Part shown: one piece after another, positions 35,570-38,317 of the stretch
Layout of the letters: every line of letters begins with the position of its first letter
Position numbering within the stretch: the first letter of the stretch is position 1
Sequence record: PQ358088.1
Strand: one strand, 5' to 3'
Origin: Staphylococcus phage TPWB-09
DNA: 46,612 nt
The notes under the pieces: model-generated
What the model was told of the DNA's origin: nothing
The model's input: only the letters and a program-made list of their open reading frames with translations
The model's database searches: none
Program-made: the position numbers and the translations under genes

Positions 35570-35730
35570 GATATAGCCTCCTTACGTTTCATTAGTTTAT
35601 TTAACCCTTTAGCTGCTCCTAAAATGTCGCCACTCAATACTTGCCCTTTAAACGTTTTGTATTGTTGTTTGCTTATACTATTACTCGATCTTTGTTTCTT
35701 CAATATCATTAACATTTTGTCTTTATCCAT
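35566..35730 (-). CDS. small basic protein (54 aa), translationally coupled between the MTase and TerS
   Basis: ATG overlaps the MTase stop (ATGGATAAA) and the stop overlaps the TerS ATG (ATGA); MDKDKMLMILKKQRSSNSISKQQYKTFKGQVLSGDILGAAKGLNKLMKRKEAIS. Confidence 0.4.
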   Translation of the reverse strand: MDKDKMLMILKKQRSSNSISKQQYKTFKGQVLSGDILGAAKGLNKLMKRKEAIS

Positions 35731-37213
35731 TTATTAACTCAGCCTTTCTTCCTGTACGTCTTTCCCATCTTTCGATAATGGCATCAACATATTGTGGTTG
35801 GTATTCCATTGTATAACACATTCTATTCGATAACTCACAAGATATAAGCACGCTGCCACTACCTCCGAATAGATCAAGTACGATATCTTCTTCTTTAGAG
35901 CTTGATTTCACACCCCTACTACATAAAGCTAATGGTTTAGGTGTAACGTGTTGACCTTTGTCTTTATATTCTTCTGACCCGGAAATCACTCTATTAATAT
36001 GCCAAACGTTGTTCATGTTGTCGTGCGTATTGTTGAAGTATGAGTGTTTTCTTCTATGCTCCCCTAAGAAGTCTTTGTAACCATGTTCAGCACTATTTAC
36101 CATGTTGTTTAATTCTTCCCATGTTAACTCCCACAATTCGCCGTAGTGTGATTGTAACTTTGAAAATACTTTTCTAGGTATCAATGCAAACTGTGACTCT
36201 GAAAAGTAATGGTTATACATTTGCGTGCCTACAATCTCTCTAAAAGCCTTAGAGCCTAACCCTACCTTTTTCGCTTGTTCTTTAAGCGCATTTAAAACCG
36301 GTCTATATCCCTCGTAAAATTGATCGGGTTGGCTATCTACATCGCCGGCTACAAATAAGCACTTCTCATCTGCAGTAGCATACTTTCTTAATGCCTCGGA
36401 ATTTTGGCCCTGTCCGGATCCTTTATCCCAAGTTATTAAGTTTTTAAAAGCAATCTCGCCCTTTTTAATCTTAGGCTTTAATATATCCGTGTAAATATCC
36501 ATAAGAGGTTGATCTAACCCCCAACAATACCAACTGCCATTTGCTTTTAAGTGTTTGAAAGATAGTGGTATCCATAACCTGTTAAAATCTAATAAATCAT
36601 CATAGCTTAGATTGTCATTAAGTACACCGTCTTTTTGCTTTTTAGCACCATAAGGAGGATCGGTAAATACTAATGAGGCTTGCTCTCCATTCATTAGGGT
36701 GTTAACGTCTTCTTCACTCGTACTATCGCCACACATTAGTCTGTGGTTTCCGAGTTGGTATATTTGCCCGAATTTAGAAACAGCCTCCTCGGGTATTTCT
36801 ACCACTCCATCTTCTTCGATCTCTTCATCTTCCACATCGTCGATATCTTCAATCGTATCAAAGCCGAAGTCGTCCATATTCAACTCCTCTAACATGTTTA
36901 ACTCACTTTGCAACAGTTCCATATCCCACTCACTAAACTCTGCTACCTTGTTATCAGCTAATCTAAAAGCCCTAACCTGTTCGTCGGATAAGTCATCGGC
37001 TATGATTACAGGTACTTCTTTAATGCCTATCTCTAACGCTGCCCTTTTACGTGTATGCCCTGCTATGATTTCATTGTCTTTATCGACAACTATCGGGACT
37101 TTAAACCCAAACTCTTTTATGCTTTGTTTCACATAATCTATCGCACCGTCGTTGTTTCTCGGATTGTCTGCATAATCTTTTAAATTATGTATATCCATCA
37201 TTTTTATTTCCAT
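35723..37213 (-). CDS. ParB-like nuclease domain fused to DNA methyltransferase (beta-class N6A/N4C; DPPY motif)
   Basis: 496 aa; N-terminal ParB fold ...IIAGHTRKRAALEIG...; LVFTDPPYG (motif IV); C-terminal LDLFGGSGS (motif I). Confidence 0.8.
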   Translation of the reverse strand: MEIKMMDIHNLKDYADNPRNNDGAIDYVKQSIKEFGFKVPIVVDKDNEIIAGHTRKRAALEIGIKEVPVIIADDLSDEQVRAFRLADNKVAEFSEWDMELLQSELNMLEELNMDDFGFDTIEDIDDVEDEEIEEDGVVEIPEEAVSKFGQIYQLGNHRLMCGDSTSEEDVNTLMNGEQASLVFTDPPYGAKKQKDGVLNDNLSYDDLLDFNRLWIPLSFKHLKANGSWYCWGLDQPLMDIYTDILKPKIKKGEIAFKNLITWDKGSGQGQNSEALRKYATADEKCLFVAGDVDSQPDQFYEGYRPVLNALKEQAKKVGLGSKAFREIVGTQMYNHYFSESQFALIPRKVFSKLQSHYGELWELTWEELNNMVNSAEHGYKDFLGEHRRKHSYFNNTHDNMNNVWHINRVISGSEEYKDKGQHVTPKPLALCSRGVKSSSKEEDIVLDLFGGSGSVLISCELSNRMCYTMEYQPQYVDAIIERWERRTGRKAELING

Positions 37214-37228
37214 TGGTTTACCTCCGTT

Positions 37229-38317
37229 TTATAATAAGACTGCTTTCTCGCCGGTGTATTCTTCCCACCTATTAACTATAACGTCGCAATATTTTGGGTC
37301 TAGTTCCATTGTGTAACATGTTCTGTCAGTCTGTTCACATGCCATTAACGTACTGCCACTGCCACCGAATAAATCTATCATGTTATTAATGTCATTCCCT
37401 TTATCGAATTTATCGAATATATCCGTAATTAACTTAATAGGTTTTTGTGTAGGGTGTACTCTGTTTATTTTCTCGCTACTCAATGTAAACATTCTAACAA
37501 CACTGCGCATATTACTCCACGCTAACTCGCAGTCTGTTTGGTCTGATTGGCCATTGTTTTTATTCCATACGATCCAACACTCGCTACTTGGTAAAAATTC
37601 GCTGTAATAATTAGCACCCCACCAAATTTGCTTTGATCCATTGAATAACTTGTCGCATAATTCCCAACTTTTATATGCCACTGTGTTATCGTCGTCGTTC
37701 ATAATGTCGTCTTTATAGGTTTTAGATAATACGCCACTCTTACTCACGGCGTTCATGCCGTATGGAGGGTCGGTAAATACCATATCTATTTTGTTGTTTC
37801 CTGTTAGTGTCATAACGTCGTCTTTATCTGTACTATCGCCACACATTAAAACATGATCGCCCAATTTATAAACGTTACCTTTAACCGTTACCGGATCTTC
37901 GGGTACTTCTTCGTCGAAATCATCTTCTTCGATCTCTACATCTTCGATTGTATCGTCTAAATCAAAGCCGAATTCGCTCATATCCATTTCATCTAGTAAG
38001 TTCAGTTCACTCATTAACAAATCTTCGTCCCATTCGCTAAACTCTGCCACTTTATTATCTGCTAACCTAAAAGCAGTCACTTGTTCTGGCGTTAGATCAT
38101 CTGCAACGATTACTGGTACCTCTTTAATACCTATCTCAATCGCTGCTTTCTTTCTTGTATGTCCGGCAATGATTACATGGTTGCTATCTACTACAATAGG
38201 GACCTTAAAACCAAATTCTTTTATACTAGCCTTAACATAATCTACTGCCTCATCATTATTTCTCGGGTTGTCGTTATAATCTATTAAATCATATATACTC
38301 ATGTTAACTATATTCAA
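37229..38317 (-). CDS. ParB-like nuclease domain fused to DNA methyltransferase (paralog of 35723..37213; TTG start)
   Basis: 362 aa; the N-terminal ~120 aa are about 70% identical to the upstream paralog. VFTDPPYG and IDLFGGSGS motifs. The middle region is divergent. Confidence 0.8.
   Translation of the reverse strand: MNIVNMSIYDLIDYNDNPRNNDEAVDYVKASIKEFGFKVPIVVDSNHVIIAGHTRKKAAIEIGIKEVPVIVADDLTPEQVTAFRLADNKVAEFSEWDEDLLMSELNLLDEMDMSEFGFDLDDTIEDVEIEEDDFDEEVPEDPVTVKGNVYKLGDHVLMCGDSTDKDDVMTLTGNNKIDMVFTDPPYGMNAVSKSGVLSKTYKDDIMNDDDNTVAYKSWELCDKLFNGSKQIWWGANYYSEFLPSSECWIVWNKNNGQSDQTDCELAWSNMRSVVRMFTLSSEKINRVHPTQKPIKLITDIFDKFDKGNDINNMIDLFGGSGSTLMACEQTDRTCYTMELDPKYCDVIVNRWEEYTGEKAVLL

Follow-up and report, generated by a model that had tools for sequence, protein, structure and literature searches.

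Immediately ahead of the terminase genes of Staphylococcus phage TPWB-09 lie two adjacent genes, each fusing a ParB-fold module to a DNA methyltransferase, and the locus raises the questions of what such a pair does for the phage and how two similar genes came to stand side by side. The whole stretch of DNA analyzed (46,612 nucleotides, record PQ358088.1) is hereafter called the window. The reading that we favor, with a probability of roughly 0.6, is that they are two separate, intact orphan methyltransferases of the ParB-terminase locus type that would mark phage DNA against restriction. The genes concerned are as follows.

37229..38317, minus strand: MT-A, short-type ParB-fold/beta-class amino-methyltransferase fusion, 362 aa; open reading frame with a TTG start
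35723..37213, minus strand: MT-B, long-type ParB-fold/beta-class amino-methyltransferase fusion, 496 aa; open reading frame with an ATG start
35566..35730, minus strand: conserved 54-aa ORF between the methyltransferase genes and terS, overlapping both neighbors; position-matched homologues
35048..35569, minus strand: terminase small subunit (terS); phrog_309, E 2e-63
33592..34989, minus strand: terminase large subunit (terL); phrog_38, E 3e-128

Both reading frames are intact and lie on the minus strand exactly where an earlier note, made from the sequence alone, had placed two neighboring genes of 362 and 496 aa (35723-38317), and each is preceded by a Shine-Dalgarno sequence (GGAGGG, 8 nt ahead of the TTG of MT-A; GGAGG, 7 nt ahead of the ATG of MT-B). 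MT-A and MT-B score above the Pfam gathering thresholds for ParB_N (PF02195; 29.7 and 39.9 bits, threshold 26.3) as well as N6_N4_Mtase (PF01555; 52.9 and 105.7 bits, threshold 26.7), and phrog_498 matches both proteins over their full length (E 2e-100 and 6e-114). The tandem is not an assembly artefact, since an independent metagenome contig (L104) carries the same arrangement at 96% nucleotide identity; a 362-aa protein in a public collection (P0001) is 98% identical to MT-A. Each protein carries every residue invariant in the 64-member alignment of its own subfamily, including DPPY, HPTQKP/HxTPKP and FGGSGS, a presence that is given by the construction of these alignments, and dN/dS against the nearest relatives is about 0.05. 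The complete set of family-invariant residues and the low dN/dS suggest that both enzymes are likely active.

On the minus strand the order is MT-A, MT-B, the 54-aa ORF, terS and terL, the genes at this head of the packaging operon overlapping or sitting no more than 15 nt apart, and from about 40900 to terL the coding strand showed a single, weak terminator-like match (5-bp stem, within MT-A). MT-A and MT-B are probably translationally coupled at the head of this operon. The claim that the pair stands directly upstream of terS nearly holds, except that the 54-aa ORF comes between; it has homologues at the same position in two sister phages (L003, 47 aa; L105, 53 aa) and in Sazerac (Sazerac_070), and no match in Pfam or PHROG. 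The proposed placement between the early and late regions was borne out, with genes for a helicase, SSB, NTP pyrophosphohydrolase and RecU upstream and terS, terL and portal downstream. No cognate restriction endonuclease was found nearby, as had been noted: the flanking ORFs have no matches or matches of unknown function only, and the only nuclease near the pair is a free-standing HNH_3 gene 1.3 kb upstream. The genes upstream of the locus differ among L003, L004 and L105, which argues against any conserved restriction partner. A type II restriction-modification system would have an endonuclease adjoining the methyltransferase, and none adjoins here; modification genes with a ParB-fold fusion stand directly before the terminase on the same strand, the arrangement of the ParB-terminase (ParB-Tls) locus (Iyer et al. 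2013, as cited in PMC4738411 and PMC6536676).

Such a conserved place right before terS and terL, together with translational coupling, could mean that methylation serves the phage's own DNA transactions, be it control of pac-site cleavage and packaging or the timing of late expression, rather than protection from restriction. Phage P1 Dam is a precedent for methylation that controls pac-site cleavage and packaging. The ParB-terminase locus has been proposed to act within packaging (PMC4738411), and the ParB modules track the phage backbone more closely than the methyltransferase cores do (Spearman 0.75 versus 0.60 with terL identity, over 73 non-independent pairs). However, sister phages with the same terminase region hold short-only (L105), long-only (Sazerac, L003) or both alleles, and because the alleles vary in this manner, interchangeable anti-restriction cargo fits better than a specific methylated pac signal. 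An own-DNA role of this kind is accordingly considered unlikely.

The catalytic halves of the two proteins are made up of the following elements.

37232..37876, minus strand: MT-A methyltransferase domain, aa 148-362; motifs, and 90-100% aa and 83-95% nt identity to short-type P0003
37760..37771, minus strand: MT-A DPPY; sequence
37559..37582, minus strand: MT-A motif VIII, ECWIVWNK; sequence
37457..37558, minus strand: MT-A TRD-position loop of minimal size, 34 aa (aa 254-287); flanked by motifs VIII and X
37439..37456, minus strand: MT-A motif X, HPTQKP; sequence
37352..37369, minus strand: MT-A FGGSGS; sequence
35726..36766, minus strand: MT-B methyltransferase domain, aa 150-496; Foldseek, phmmer, motifs
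36650..36661, minus strand: MT-B DPPY; sequence
36422..36442, minus strand: MT-B motif VIII; sequence
35951..36421, minus strand: MT-B TRD-position insert of 157 aa (aa 265-421), largely helical; structure model, insert lacking in MT-A
35933..35950, minus strand: MT-B motif X, HVTPKP; sequence
35852..35869, minus strand: MT-B FGGSGS; sequence

The beta-class motifs reported earlier are present in both proteins, DPPY at aa 183 and 185 and FGGSGS at aa 317 and 449 of MT-A and MT-B, respectively, and motif IV lies ahead of motif I in each, which is the beta-class order. Foldseek matched MT-B to M.BceJIV (target-normalized TM 0.70-0.71, E 1e-11) and M.MboIIA (TM 0.61-0.63) as well as to RsrI, CcrM and M1.HpyAVI, and phmmer likewise retrieved M.MboIIA (E 3e-13). 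MT-A matches solved beta-class enzymes less well (E 3e-4, TM 0.37-0.43), as its model is partly of low confidence, aa 235-282 being poorly modeled. Typically, DPPY rather than SPP[YF] favors adenine, and by analogy this motif along with the best matches (MboIIA, BceJIV, RsrI and CcrM) favors N6-adenine as the predicted target base of both enzymes.

Similarity between the two proteins is confined to their ends, with BLASTP identities of 61% across aa 1-211 (E 2e-78) and 44% across the last 96 aa and no BLASTP alignment in the middle. This agrees with the claim that the central regions are unlike in length and sequence, 34 aa standing against 157 aa at the TRD position. The insert of MT-B holds helices at aa 301-317, 321-328, 333-337, 347-360 and 365-389 (pLDDT 90-96 across aa 301-370), while the 34-aa loop of MT-A is highly conserved across its family but modeled with low confidence. 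The spacing from DPPY to FxGxG falls into two discrete classes: all of 119 short-type proteins have exactly 134 aa, and 120 long-type proteins range from 243 to 274 aa. Since it is chiefly the TRD position that distinguishes the cores, two different target specificities are plausible; the enzymes could also recognize overlapping motifs or be non-specific.

Beta-class methyltransferases act as homo- or heterodimers with a division of labor (PMC7544214), and MT-A and MT-B could in principle form a heterodimer in which one mainly recognizes DNA and the other methylates it. Their ParB modules and C-terminal SAM-binding segments are similar, and the short-then-long order is seen again in an unrelated tandem (L027). 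Yet neither protein lacks any of the catalytic and SAM motifs or any family-invariant residue, and in most phages each type stands alone, which makes such a partnership very unlikely.

The other half of each fusion comprises a ParB module and an acidic linker.

37964..38317, minus strand: MT-A ParB module, aa 1-118; fold match, and 91% aa and 78-92% nt identity to the long-type P0123 module
38255..38269, minus strand: MT-A NPRNN; sequence
38144..38164, minus strand: MT-A P-motif GHTRKKA; sequence
37877..37963, minus strand: MT-A acidic linker, aa 119-147, DLDDTIEDVEIEEDDFDEEVPEDP...; pLDDT dip
36860..37213, minus strand: MT-B ParB module, aa 1-118; alignment to M. xanthus ParB
37151..37165, minus strand: MT-B NPRNN; sequence
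37040..37060, minus strand: MT-B GHTRKRA; sequence
36767..36859, minus strand: MT-B acidic linker, aa 119-149; aa 118-141 with pLDDT under 50

In the linker of MT-A the pLDDT falls to 58 in the block of aa 121-130 and below 50 at aa 122-126, and the linker consensus EDDF..PEEP is kept in both subfamilies. The best PDB fold matches of the ParB module are CTP- or CDP-bound ParB N-domains (Foldseek probability 1.00), and alignment of MT-B with M. xanthus ParB pairs GERRwRA with GHTRkRA and DQPR with DNPR. The phosphate-binding arginines of the nucleotide pocket are kept (R55 and R/K57 in the P-motif GHTRK(R/K)A, R19 in NPR); the CTP-hydrolysis residues are swapped, invariantly in both subfamilies (Q52 to N17 and E93 to H53, Q52 and E93 in M. 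xanthus numbering).

The name ParB-nuclease used in the earlier note turns out to be an annotation label with no result behind it, the fold being closest to nucleotide-bound ParB N-domains. Some ParB/Srx proteins are reported to have nuclease activity, the invariant His53 takes the place of the ParB glutamate in the P-motif, and the PHROG families of the module are annotated as nuclease; the module might therefore nick or degrade DNA while the fused methyltransferase marks self DNA. However, no metal-binding nuclease motif was identified in the ParB module, its nearest structures are nucleotide-bound clamps and not nucleases, and the label "ParB-like nuclease" is historical for the ParB-methyltransferase family, so that a nuclease function appears quite improbable.

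A further possibility is that these are partition ParBs by which the phage would persist as a plasmid prophage outside the chromosome. Such a role was proposed for the orthologue of MT-B in phage Lacachita, ORF70, which the study annotated as ParB; it found no integrase and reported transduction along with indications of pseudolysogeny (PMC10286716). The ParB_N domain is real, but it is an N-terminal ParB module alone. TIGR00180 scores 39.9 and 51.6 bits, under its cut-off of 58.45; Pfam returns ParB_N, the methyltransferase domain and weak overlapping methyltransferase-family matches only; and no deviant Walker-A ParA (KGGxGK[ST]) occurs in the six frames of the window, nor is a ParA reported for the sister genomes (PMC10286716). 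Three quarters of the protein is methyltransferase, the structure models giving this fold to the part beyond the ParB module, and hundreds of lytic phages and integrated prophages have the same fusion ahead of their terminase genes (PMC6536676). The ParB module, without HTH, C-terminal dimerization domain or ParA, is not a partition protein, and plasmid maintenance by it has hardly any likelihood left. This amounts to an annotation correction, as the orthologue called a partition ParB was used to argue that the genus is temperate and unfit for therapy; the partition role receives no support from the present evidence.

That the fused ParB domain is unexplained, as had been stated, overlooks published proposals (PMC4738411, PMC6536676, PMC13229309). 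For the ParB-terminase locus it has been proposed that modification is coupled to packaging (PMC4738411, PMC6536676), and in another phage system a ParB activates the DNA-modifying enzyme it accompanies when the substrate is dsDNA, and only then (PMC13229309). The module of TPWB-09 may similarly be an accessory that helps an obligately dimeric beta-class enzyme to form on phage dsDNA or to engage it, possibly under nucleotide gating. A PNAS 2025 survey of ParB folds found ParB-N6_N4 methyltransferase fusions to be enriched in phages and prophages; its text names 11 nucleotide binders, none of which (0/11) is an N6_N4-methyltransferase fusion (PMC12704722), and mutants of the nucleotide site still worked in the 5mYOX-ParB system (PMC13229309). 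For these two reasons nucleotide gating of the module is doubtful.

With regard to origin, the earlier note described the pair as tandem duplicated, which would imply that one ParB-methyltransferase gene was recently duplicated in place and that the central specificity region then diverged. The genes do adjoin in the same orientation, and the N-terminal 120 aa, for which about 70% identity had been claimed, are 74% identical (89/120, global alignment) with recognizable similarity at the DNA level (66-76% nt identity). In the tandem of L027, too, the two ParB modules resemble each other (77%) more than either resembles those of other phages. Nevertheless, the ParB modules of MT-A and MT-B are saturated at synonymous sites (pS 0.78), and every segment has closer relatives elsewhere. 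The MT-A module is nearer to the long-type genes that sister phages carry in single copy (91% aa identity to P0123, 83% to the Sazerac type) than to MT-B (75%), while its core is 90-100% identical to the short-type P0003 and 16-46% to MT-B in the same windows. That core belongs to a very large short-type subfamily distinct from MT-B, and both core types have thousands of full-length relatives, each of its own type. The junction was localized as follows.

37790..37858, minus strand: recombination breakpoint interval in MT-A, codons 154-176; maximum chi-square and sliding-window identities

The maximum chi-square was 171, 133 and 92 with P0123/P0003, Sazerac/P0003 and P0123/P0002 as parents, respectively, and was reached in 0 of 2000 permutations each. 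In MT-B, the ParB module is 63-72% identical to Sazerac at the nucleotide level, and most windows in the rest of the gene are 71-88% identical. L003 has the 5' flank and ParB module as in MT-A with the core and 3' flank as in MT-B, and ParB modules are common to both enzyme types (65.2% identity within a type versus 64.6% between types). These comparisons indicate that the pair is not the product of local duplication but a mosaic formed by recombination at the junction of ParB-linker and methyltransferase; the duplication model appears largely refuted, its probability being minimal.

A single unequal crossover between ParB modules would add or remove a cassette of core, stop, RBS and ParB. More speculatively, the ParB module and acidic linker may constitute a portable, phage-backbone-specific adaptor, at once methyltransferase assembler and recombination handle. 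At the protein level it could dimerize, perhaps on nucleotide binding, and clamp homo- or heterodimeric methyltransferases onto phage DNA at packaging; at the DNA level it could offer homology for swapping, stacking and shedding methyltransferase cores as cassettes. We regard this as a rather improbable extension of the mosaic finding. If true, it would describe a recombinational system that changes anti-restriction specificity, with the TPWB-09 window as the natural two-cassette state and Sazerac, L003 and L105 as one-cassette states at the same locus.

Returning to the reading of two orphan protective enzymes, each would most likely act late in infection on phage DNA that has been replicated, N6-methylating adenine within a short motif of its own either ahead of or during headful packaging, a mode described for the sister phage CUB-EPI_14 (PMC9230115). 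On entering the next host, progeny genomes would then already bear a modification against adenine-marking restriction systems, and adenine marking would avoid methyl-cytosine, the target of staphylococcal type IV enzymes. The barriers of S. epidermidis are type I (adenine) and type IV systems (PMC6918075). An anti-restriction role is thus a reasonable reading of the sequence, although it is not guaranteed that short-motif enzymes would shield bipartite type I targets. It also counts against this reading that CGCG is absent from the whole 46.6-kb window and several 6-bp palindromes are purged, so that the phage relies on site avoidance as well.

What ParB-fold modules do when joined to phage methyltransferases is being actively investigated (PNAS 2025 and 2026 papers), and the locus is a natural experiment in this respect: a single operon contains two cores with related ParB modules, and sister phages have either core alone. 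Methylome comparison and module swaps could show if the ParB module sets the substrate (dsDNA, phage DNA or packaging intermediates) apart from sequence specificity. Beyond this question and the annotation, the pair is an ordinary one of orphan phage methyltransferases.

Among known systems, canonical ParB CTPase clamps (M. xanthus ParB, B. subtilis Spo0J, Noc and KorB) have the N-terminal fold in common with MT-A and MT-B, including a Box I-like SIKEFG..P, the P-motif arginines and the (N/Q)PR arginine; unlike them, the TPWB-09 proteins have no HTH, C-terminal dimerization domain or ParA, and carry invariant N17/H53 for Q52/E93. M.BceJIV, M.MboIIA, M.RsrI, CcrM and M1.HpyAVI match in catalytic fold and motif order but have no ParB module and only 13-20% sequence identity. 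M1.HpyAVI is a functional enzyme with a very short TRD and hence a precedent for MT-A. M.EcoGII, a prophage orphan, non-specific adenine beta-class methyltransferase that is silent in lysogens and thought to be anti-restriction (PMC5778455), has 349 aa and no extra domain, so that the ParB module is lacking. ParB176/5mYOX176 offers a ParB-fold protein without a DNA-binding domain, tied to a post-replicative DNA-modifying enzyme and needed specifically on dsDNA; ParB176 is, however, a separate protein with a C-terminal dimerization domain and a dioxygenase partner, whereas the ParB of MT-A and MT-B is fused to the methyltransferase (PMC13229309).

Short-type ParB-methyltransferases of Weissella phage WCP30 (53%) and of Lactobacillus and Streptococcus (pro)phages (41-44%) align end to end with MT-A and have its 134-aa DPPY-FxGxG spacing, but MT-A differs in drawing its ParB module from the staphylococcal long-type lineage. 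The WCP30 record labels its gene a cytosine-5 methyltransferase, a misfit with the family. Sazerac_069, Lacachita ORF70 and the CUB-EPI_14 methylase are MT-B orthologues (78-79% aa identity over full length) in the same locus order of methyltransferase, small ORF and terS; the Sazerac-group phages, in contrast, have a single gene, whose ParB module is nearer to MT-A (83%) than to MT-B (71%). Earlier work has described both the fusion architecture and where it stands relative to the terminase (phrog_498, the "ParB-Tls locus" and the PNAS 2025 survey, PMC12704722), and the PHROG 498/PIRSF036758 ParB-Tls fusions have the same domain order, position upstream of the terminase and orphan status as MT-A and MT-B. 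What sets TPWB-09 apart is two members of different subtypes in tandem, an arrangement that is uncommon (1 of 92 IMG/VR loci; two ParB modules in at most 19 of 465 deposited phage records, at most 4%). Overall, the locus consists of ordinary members of a known family, and its modest new point is the shuffling of modules.

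The phage is a siphovirus (~46.6 kb, 37% GC) with nearly every gene on the minus strand, and its only nucleotide-level matches, at 72-78% identity, are the Staphylococcus epidermidis phages Sazerac, Southeast, CUB-EPI_14 and S-CoN_Ph26/27; the match to the related phage Lacachita was found at protein level. It carries two intact, strongly constrained genes of mosaic origin, each fusing a ParB fold to a beta-class methyltransferase and differing in their target-recognition domains (TRDs). The two ORFs of 362 and 496 aa described in the earlier note are real, and they and their surroundings are as follows.

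37229..38317, minus strand: MT-A, the short-type methyltransferase gene, 362 aa, TTG start with GGAGGG 8 nt before it
35723..37213, minus strand: MT-B, the long-type neighbour, 496 aa, ATG start with GGAGG 7 nt before it
35566-35730, minus strand: 54-aa ORF, sharing 8 nt with MT-B and 4 nt with terS
39630-40184, minus strand: gene of an HNH_3 endonuclease (phrog_1891, E 1e-41), located 1.3 kb 5' of the pair
40653-40820: small DNA-binding protein gene, lying after the two hairpins downstream of RecU
40942-40908, 41109-41082 and 41712-41691, coding (minus) strand: terminator-like hairpins clustered around RecU

MT-A and MT-B are separated by 15 nt, and past the 54-aa ORF the order is terS, terL and the portal gene. 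Located 5' of the pair are small unknown ORFs, the free-standing HNH_3 gene and the small DNA-binding protein gene, followed farther upstream by the hairpin cluster (40908-41712) and then RecU, NTP pyrophosphohydrolase, SSB and helicase. One hairpin lies just upstream of RecU (41187-41669) and two just downstream, and they may mark the border between a DNA-metabolism transcription unit and a methyltransferase and packaging unit. From the pair to the terminase, the coding strand holds a single weak terminator-like match (a 5-bp stem within MT-A). A promoter scan was uninformative (30 sites vs 32 expected). Given the hairpin cluster and early genes upstream and terS, terL and portal after it, the pair sits at the head of the packaging operon. 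It does precede terS as had been noted, but not directly, a conserved 54-aa ORF lying between. The order 140 aa / MT-A / MT-B / 54 aa / terS recurs in an independent metagenome contig (L104, ENA ERZ27280550) at 96% nucleotide identity. Neither a nuclease partner nor a ParA was found for the pair, in line with the view of these enzymes as orphans, and the HNH_3 gene resembles that of a homing-type endonuclease more than a restriction partner.

The TTG start of MT-A (38303-38317, minus strand) has a strong Shine-Dalgarno site, and the first five codons are homologous to Sazerac-type protein starts; the gene call for the L104 counterpart (534-1607, 357 aa) begins five codons downstream, at an ATG without an obvious ribosome-binding site. 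The 54-aa ORF is without a Pfam or PHROG match and has homologues at the equivalent position at the loci L003 (47 aa) and L105 (53 aa) and in Sazerac (Sazerac_070), which have in common the motif QQYKTFKGQVLSGD..AAKGL.KLMK. No homologue accompanies the tandem of locus L027. Its product could be a packaging or methyltransferase accessory protein.

Both proteins exceed the Pfam gathering thresholds for ParB_N and N6_N4_Mtase and match PHROG 498 'DNA methyltransferase' end to end (E 2e-100 for MT-A, 6e-114 for MT-B). Their AlphaFold2 models (mean pLDDT 77 and 81, respectively) fall into three parts, namely a confident N-terminal ParB module (aa 1-118), an acidic linker, parts of which (aa 122-126 in MT-A, aa 118-141 in MT-B) are modelled with low confidence, and a Rossmann-type methyltransferase domain, the core. 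By BLASTP the two are 61% identical over aa 1-211 (E 2e-78) and 44% over the last 96 aa, with no alignment in the middle region. The similarity of the first ~120 aa, recognized earlier at protein and DNA level, amounts to 89/120 identical residues (74%) and 66-76% at the DNA level. The beta-class motifs reported before are likewise present in both, DPPY (aa 183 in MT-A, 185 in MT-B) standing N-terminal to FGGSGS (aa 317 and 449), and the C-terminal part matches the beta-class N6-adenine enzymes M.BceJIV, M.MboIIA, M.RsrI, CcrM and M1.HpyAVI. No characterised close homologue was found.

The central regions, described earlier as unlike in length and sequence, do diverge in the stretch bounded by motif VIII (ECWIVWNK / NLITWDK) and by motif X (HPTQKP / HVTPKP). 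This stretch, the TRD position of beta-class enzymes by the motif order in PMC5778455, is a 34-aa loop in MT-A and comprises 157 aa in MT-B, largely helical and with a confident model at aa 301-370. Among 239 relatives, the distance from DPPY to FxGxG is exactly 134 aa in 119/119 short-type proteins and 243-274 aa in 120 long-type proteins; as these values fall into separate classes, short and long are discrete enzyme types. MT-A and MT-B probably have two specificities.

The earlier note had called the ParB domain unexplained, a statement now outdated since the fusion, like its genomic position, is documented in a very large phage family. It had also used the term nuclease domain, and a nuclease is one rival reading of the module; its top PDB matches are the CTP/CDP-bound N-domains of M. 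xanthus ParB, B. subtilis Spo0J, Noc, KorB and PadC. Aligned to M. xanthus ParB, GERRwRA stands opposite GHTRkRA and DQPR opposite DNPR, with Q and E 41 residues apart, as are Q52 and E93, the residues mutated in solved hydrolysis-defective ParB structures. Q52 and E93 act in ParB hydrolysis. The pocket arginines R19, R55 and R/K57 are retained while Q is replaced by N17 and E by H53. Alignments of 64 sequences per subfamily show no variation at N17, R19 or G52-H53-T54-R55; P18 never varies in the long-type alignment and reaches at least 90% conservation in the short-type one. Because the arginines and GHTR are kept and dN/dS is ~0.05, the module is subject to strong selection and seems able to bind phosphate. 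Hydrolysis of CTP in the manner of partition ParBs is unlikely from the residues present.

A partition role is the rival raised by Lacachita, whose MT-B orthologue, labelled 'ParB protein', was drawn on in an argument for plasmid-prophage maintenance (PMC10286716). Pfam and TIGR profile searches revealed neither an HTH nor a C-terminal dimerisation domain in either protein, and no ParA-type Walker A motif occurs anywhere in the window; with HTH, dimerisation domain and ParA all missing, that reading is unsupported. As for labels, the Lacachita gene is ORF70 (OP142323.1), and the WCP30 gene (KU981050.1 / NC_031101.1) is named 'DNA (cytosine-5-)-methyltransferase' despite amino-methyltransferase family membership. 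The S-CoN_Ph26/27 orthologue (OR354849.1 / OR354850.1) lies in 3-7 pieces over several CDS, suggesting frameshift errors or pseudogenisation.

The pair had been taken as a tandem local duplication, for which the adjacency and the similar N-termini speak. Each gene, however, has thousands of full-length relatives within its own length class, and the parts of MT-A are closer to genes elsewhere than to MT-B.

Amino acid identity of MT-A segments
MT-A aa 1-120: 91% to P0123 and 83% to P0122, single-copy long-type proteins of syntenic phages
MT-A aa 1-120: 75% to MT-B and at most 74% to short-type proteins
MT-A aa ~180-330: 90-100% to the short-type protein P0003 and 16-56% to MT-B

At the DNA level MT-A is 78-92% identical to the P0123 gene up to about codon 120 and 83-95% identical to the P0003 gene from about codon 180 to 345, and the maximum chi-square test places a breakpoint at codons 154-176 (chi-square 171, 0/2000 permutations). 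MT-B, by its sequence, is mosaic as well: from codon 121 on it is the orthologue of Sazerac_069 (71-88% nucleotide identity in most windows, minimum 65%), its ParB module shares only 63-72% identity with the Sazerac one, and a breakpoint lies near codons 145-175 (0/2000 permutations). Between the two ParB modules pS is 0.78, that is, saturated, and pN is 0.16. A recent duplication was rejected on synonymous saturation and the mosaic tests, and the pair is a mosaic rather than a local duplication.

Sister phages carry alternative alleles at this locus, short-type only in L105 and long-type only in Sazerac and L003, each followed by a small-ORF homologue and terS. L003 matches MT-A in its 5' flank and ParB module (82% nt) and MT-B in its core and 3' flank (73% nt); relative to L003, the window hence holds an extra in-frame cassette of ~1.1 kb (short core, stop, RBS and second ParB module), and a single unequal crossover from one ParB module to another could have added or removed it. 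When the donor-like contigs L003 and L004 were compared with deposited phages by megablast, nothing matched, and a search of one genome per species yielded only distant relatives (28-35% identity) in Thermoactinomyces, Croceifilum, Bacteroidales and Clostridia.

Among 92 IMG/VR loci with genes of this kind the one other true tandem was L027 (IMGVR_UViG_3300028629_000154, 668-3342), from an unrelated phage of 42% GC, where the short gene (380 aa) again comes first and the long one (506 aa) second, ahead of terS and terL. Its two ParB modules share 77% identity, compared with ~40% to those of the window, and have saturated synonymous sites (pS 0.74-0.81), and the cores of the two loci cluster by type (short-short 40%, long-long 50%, short-long 29%). 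The linker and C-terminal 50 aa are near-identical between its two genes (pS 0.31-0.44); these segments are younger than the ParB modules, a hint of gene conversion, or of a recent exchange, affecting the ends of the genes. Across the 239 proteins, ParB-module identity is 65.2% within enzyme type vs 64.6% between types, and the nearest module belongs to the other type in 29%. Over 73 non-independent locus pairs, terL identity is tracked more closely by ParB modules (Spearman 0.75) than by cores (0.60), and where the terminases are distant, mean identity is 49% for the modules and 71% for the cores. In deposited phages the module occurs at 484 places in 465 records, so two-copy records make up at most ~4%. 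Javan492 'methylase x2' was rejected as a tandem pair, being one gene split in annotation.

Most likely, by inference, MT-A and MT-B each N6-methylate adenine late in infection, acting on replicated phage DNA at a short motif that differs between them, whereby packaged genomes would be pre-protected. Adenine is favoured as the base by the DPPY motif and the N6A nearest neighbours. The main S. epidermidis barriers are adenine-marking type I systems and a type IV enzyme attacking cytosine-methylated DNA (PMC6918075), so adenine methylation would be least likely to backfire. Beta-class enzymes are thought to be active only as dimers (PMC7544214), and in one rival reading MT-A and MT-B act as a heterodimer; single alleles stand alone in L105, Sazerac and L003. 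Methylation serving packaging or gene timing is a further rival, to which the place at the head of the packaging operon is relevant, as is the proposal of Iyer et al. 2013, as related in PMC6536676 and also in PMC4738411, that ParB guides a modification apparatus at packaging. In the literature searched, no published methylome or restriction results on this phage group were found.

Site usage was observed separately. CGCG is absent from the window (0 vs ~54 expected) and from L104 (0 vs 4.5), CCGG is over-represented in the window (108 vs 55) and GCGC, GATC and GGCC are at normal frequency, while Sazerac, S-CoN_Ph27, L003 and the locus L017 have 4-11 CGCG per locus, about the number expected (L003 5 vs 10.7). 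Such a pattern suggests a host bearing a restriction enzyme that cuts CGCG, against which an adenine methyltransferase would be powerless; a CGCG-specific system was not found in the S. epidermidis methylome paper. Several 6-bp palindromes are depleted, among them AAGCTT (0 vs 8.7 expected), TTCGAA (0 vs 9.3), ATGCAT (1 vs 8.8) and GAATTC (2 vs 12.7); the phage therefore combines restriction-site avoidance with methyltransferases.

With regard to known systems, M.EcoGII was rejected as a ParB-fused precedent, the described enzyme being 349 aa with no extra domain, and pamA of the S. aureus prophage mPhi11 was dropped as a relative, as its paper likens it to Dam and is without mention of ParB. 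The VarioGold and O145 papers proved to have no bearing on this fusion. N6_N4-MTase fusions were found to be enriched in phages and prophages by a survey of the ParB-CTPase fold from 2025, which proposed that they have roles in anti-defence, and none of the eleven nucleotide binders named in its text is such a fusion (PMC12704722). In 2026 a phage ParB without a DNA-binding domain was reported to activate its cognate thymine dioxygenase solely on dsDNA, its nucleotide-site mutants being still functional (PMC13229309). By analogy with this type of activator (ParB176), we favour an accessory role for the ParB module, which would aid the dimeric enzyme in engaging dsDNA or phage DNA; gating by a nucleotide is possible, though doubtful. 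In Paracoccus prophages 36 m6A/m4C methyltransferases with an N-terminal ParB were surveyed, all 36 upstream of terminase genes, and the same paper credits the 'ParB-Tls locus' (ParB-terminase large subunit locus) and the ParB-methyltransferase fusions to Iyer et al. 2013 (PMC6536676). Fusion and placement before the terminase are thus not new, and what is added here is evidence for exchange at the linker, in which ParB module and methyltransferase core move as separate units, together with evidence for tandem arrays as rare states of an allelic locus.
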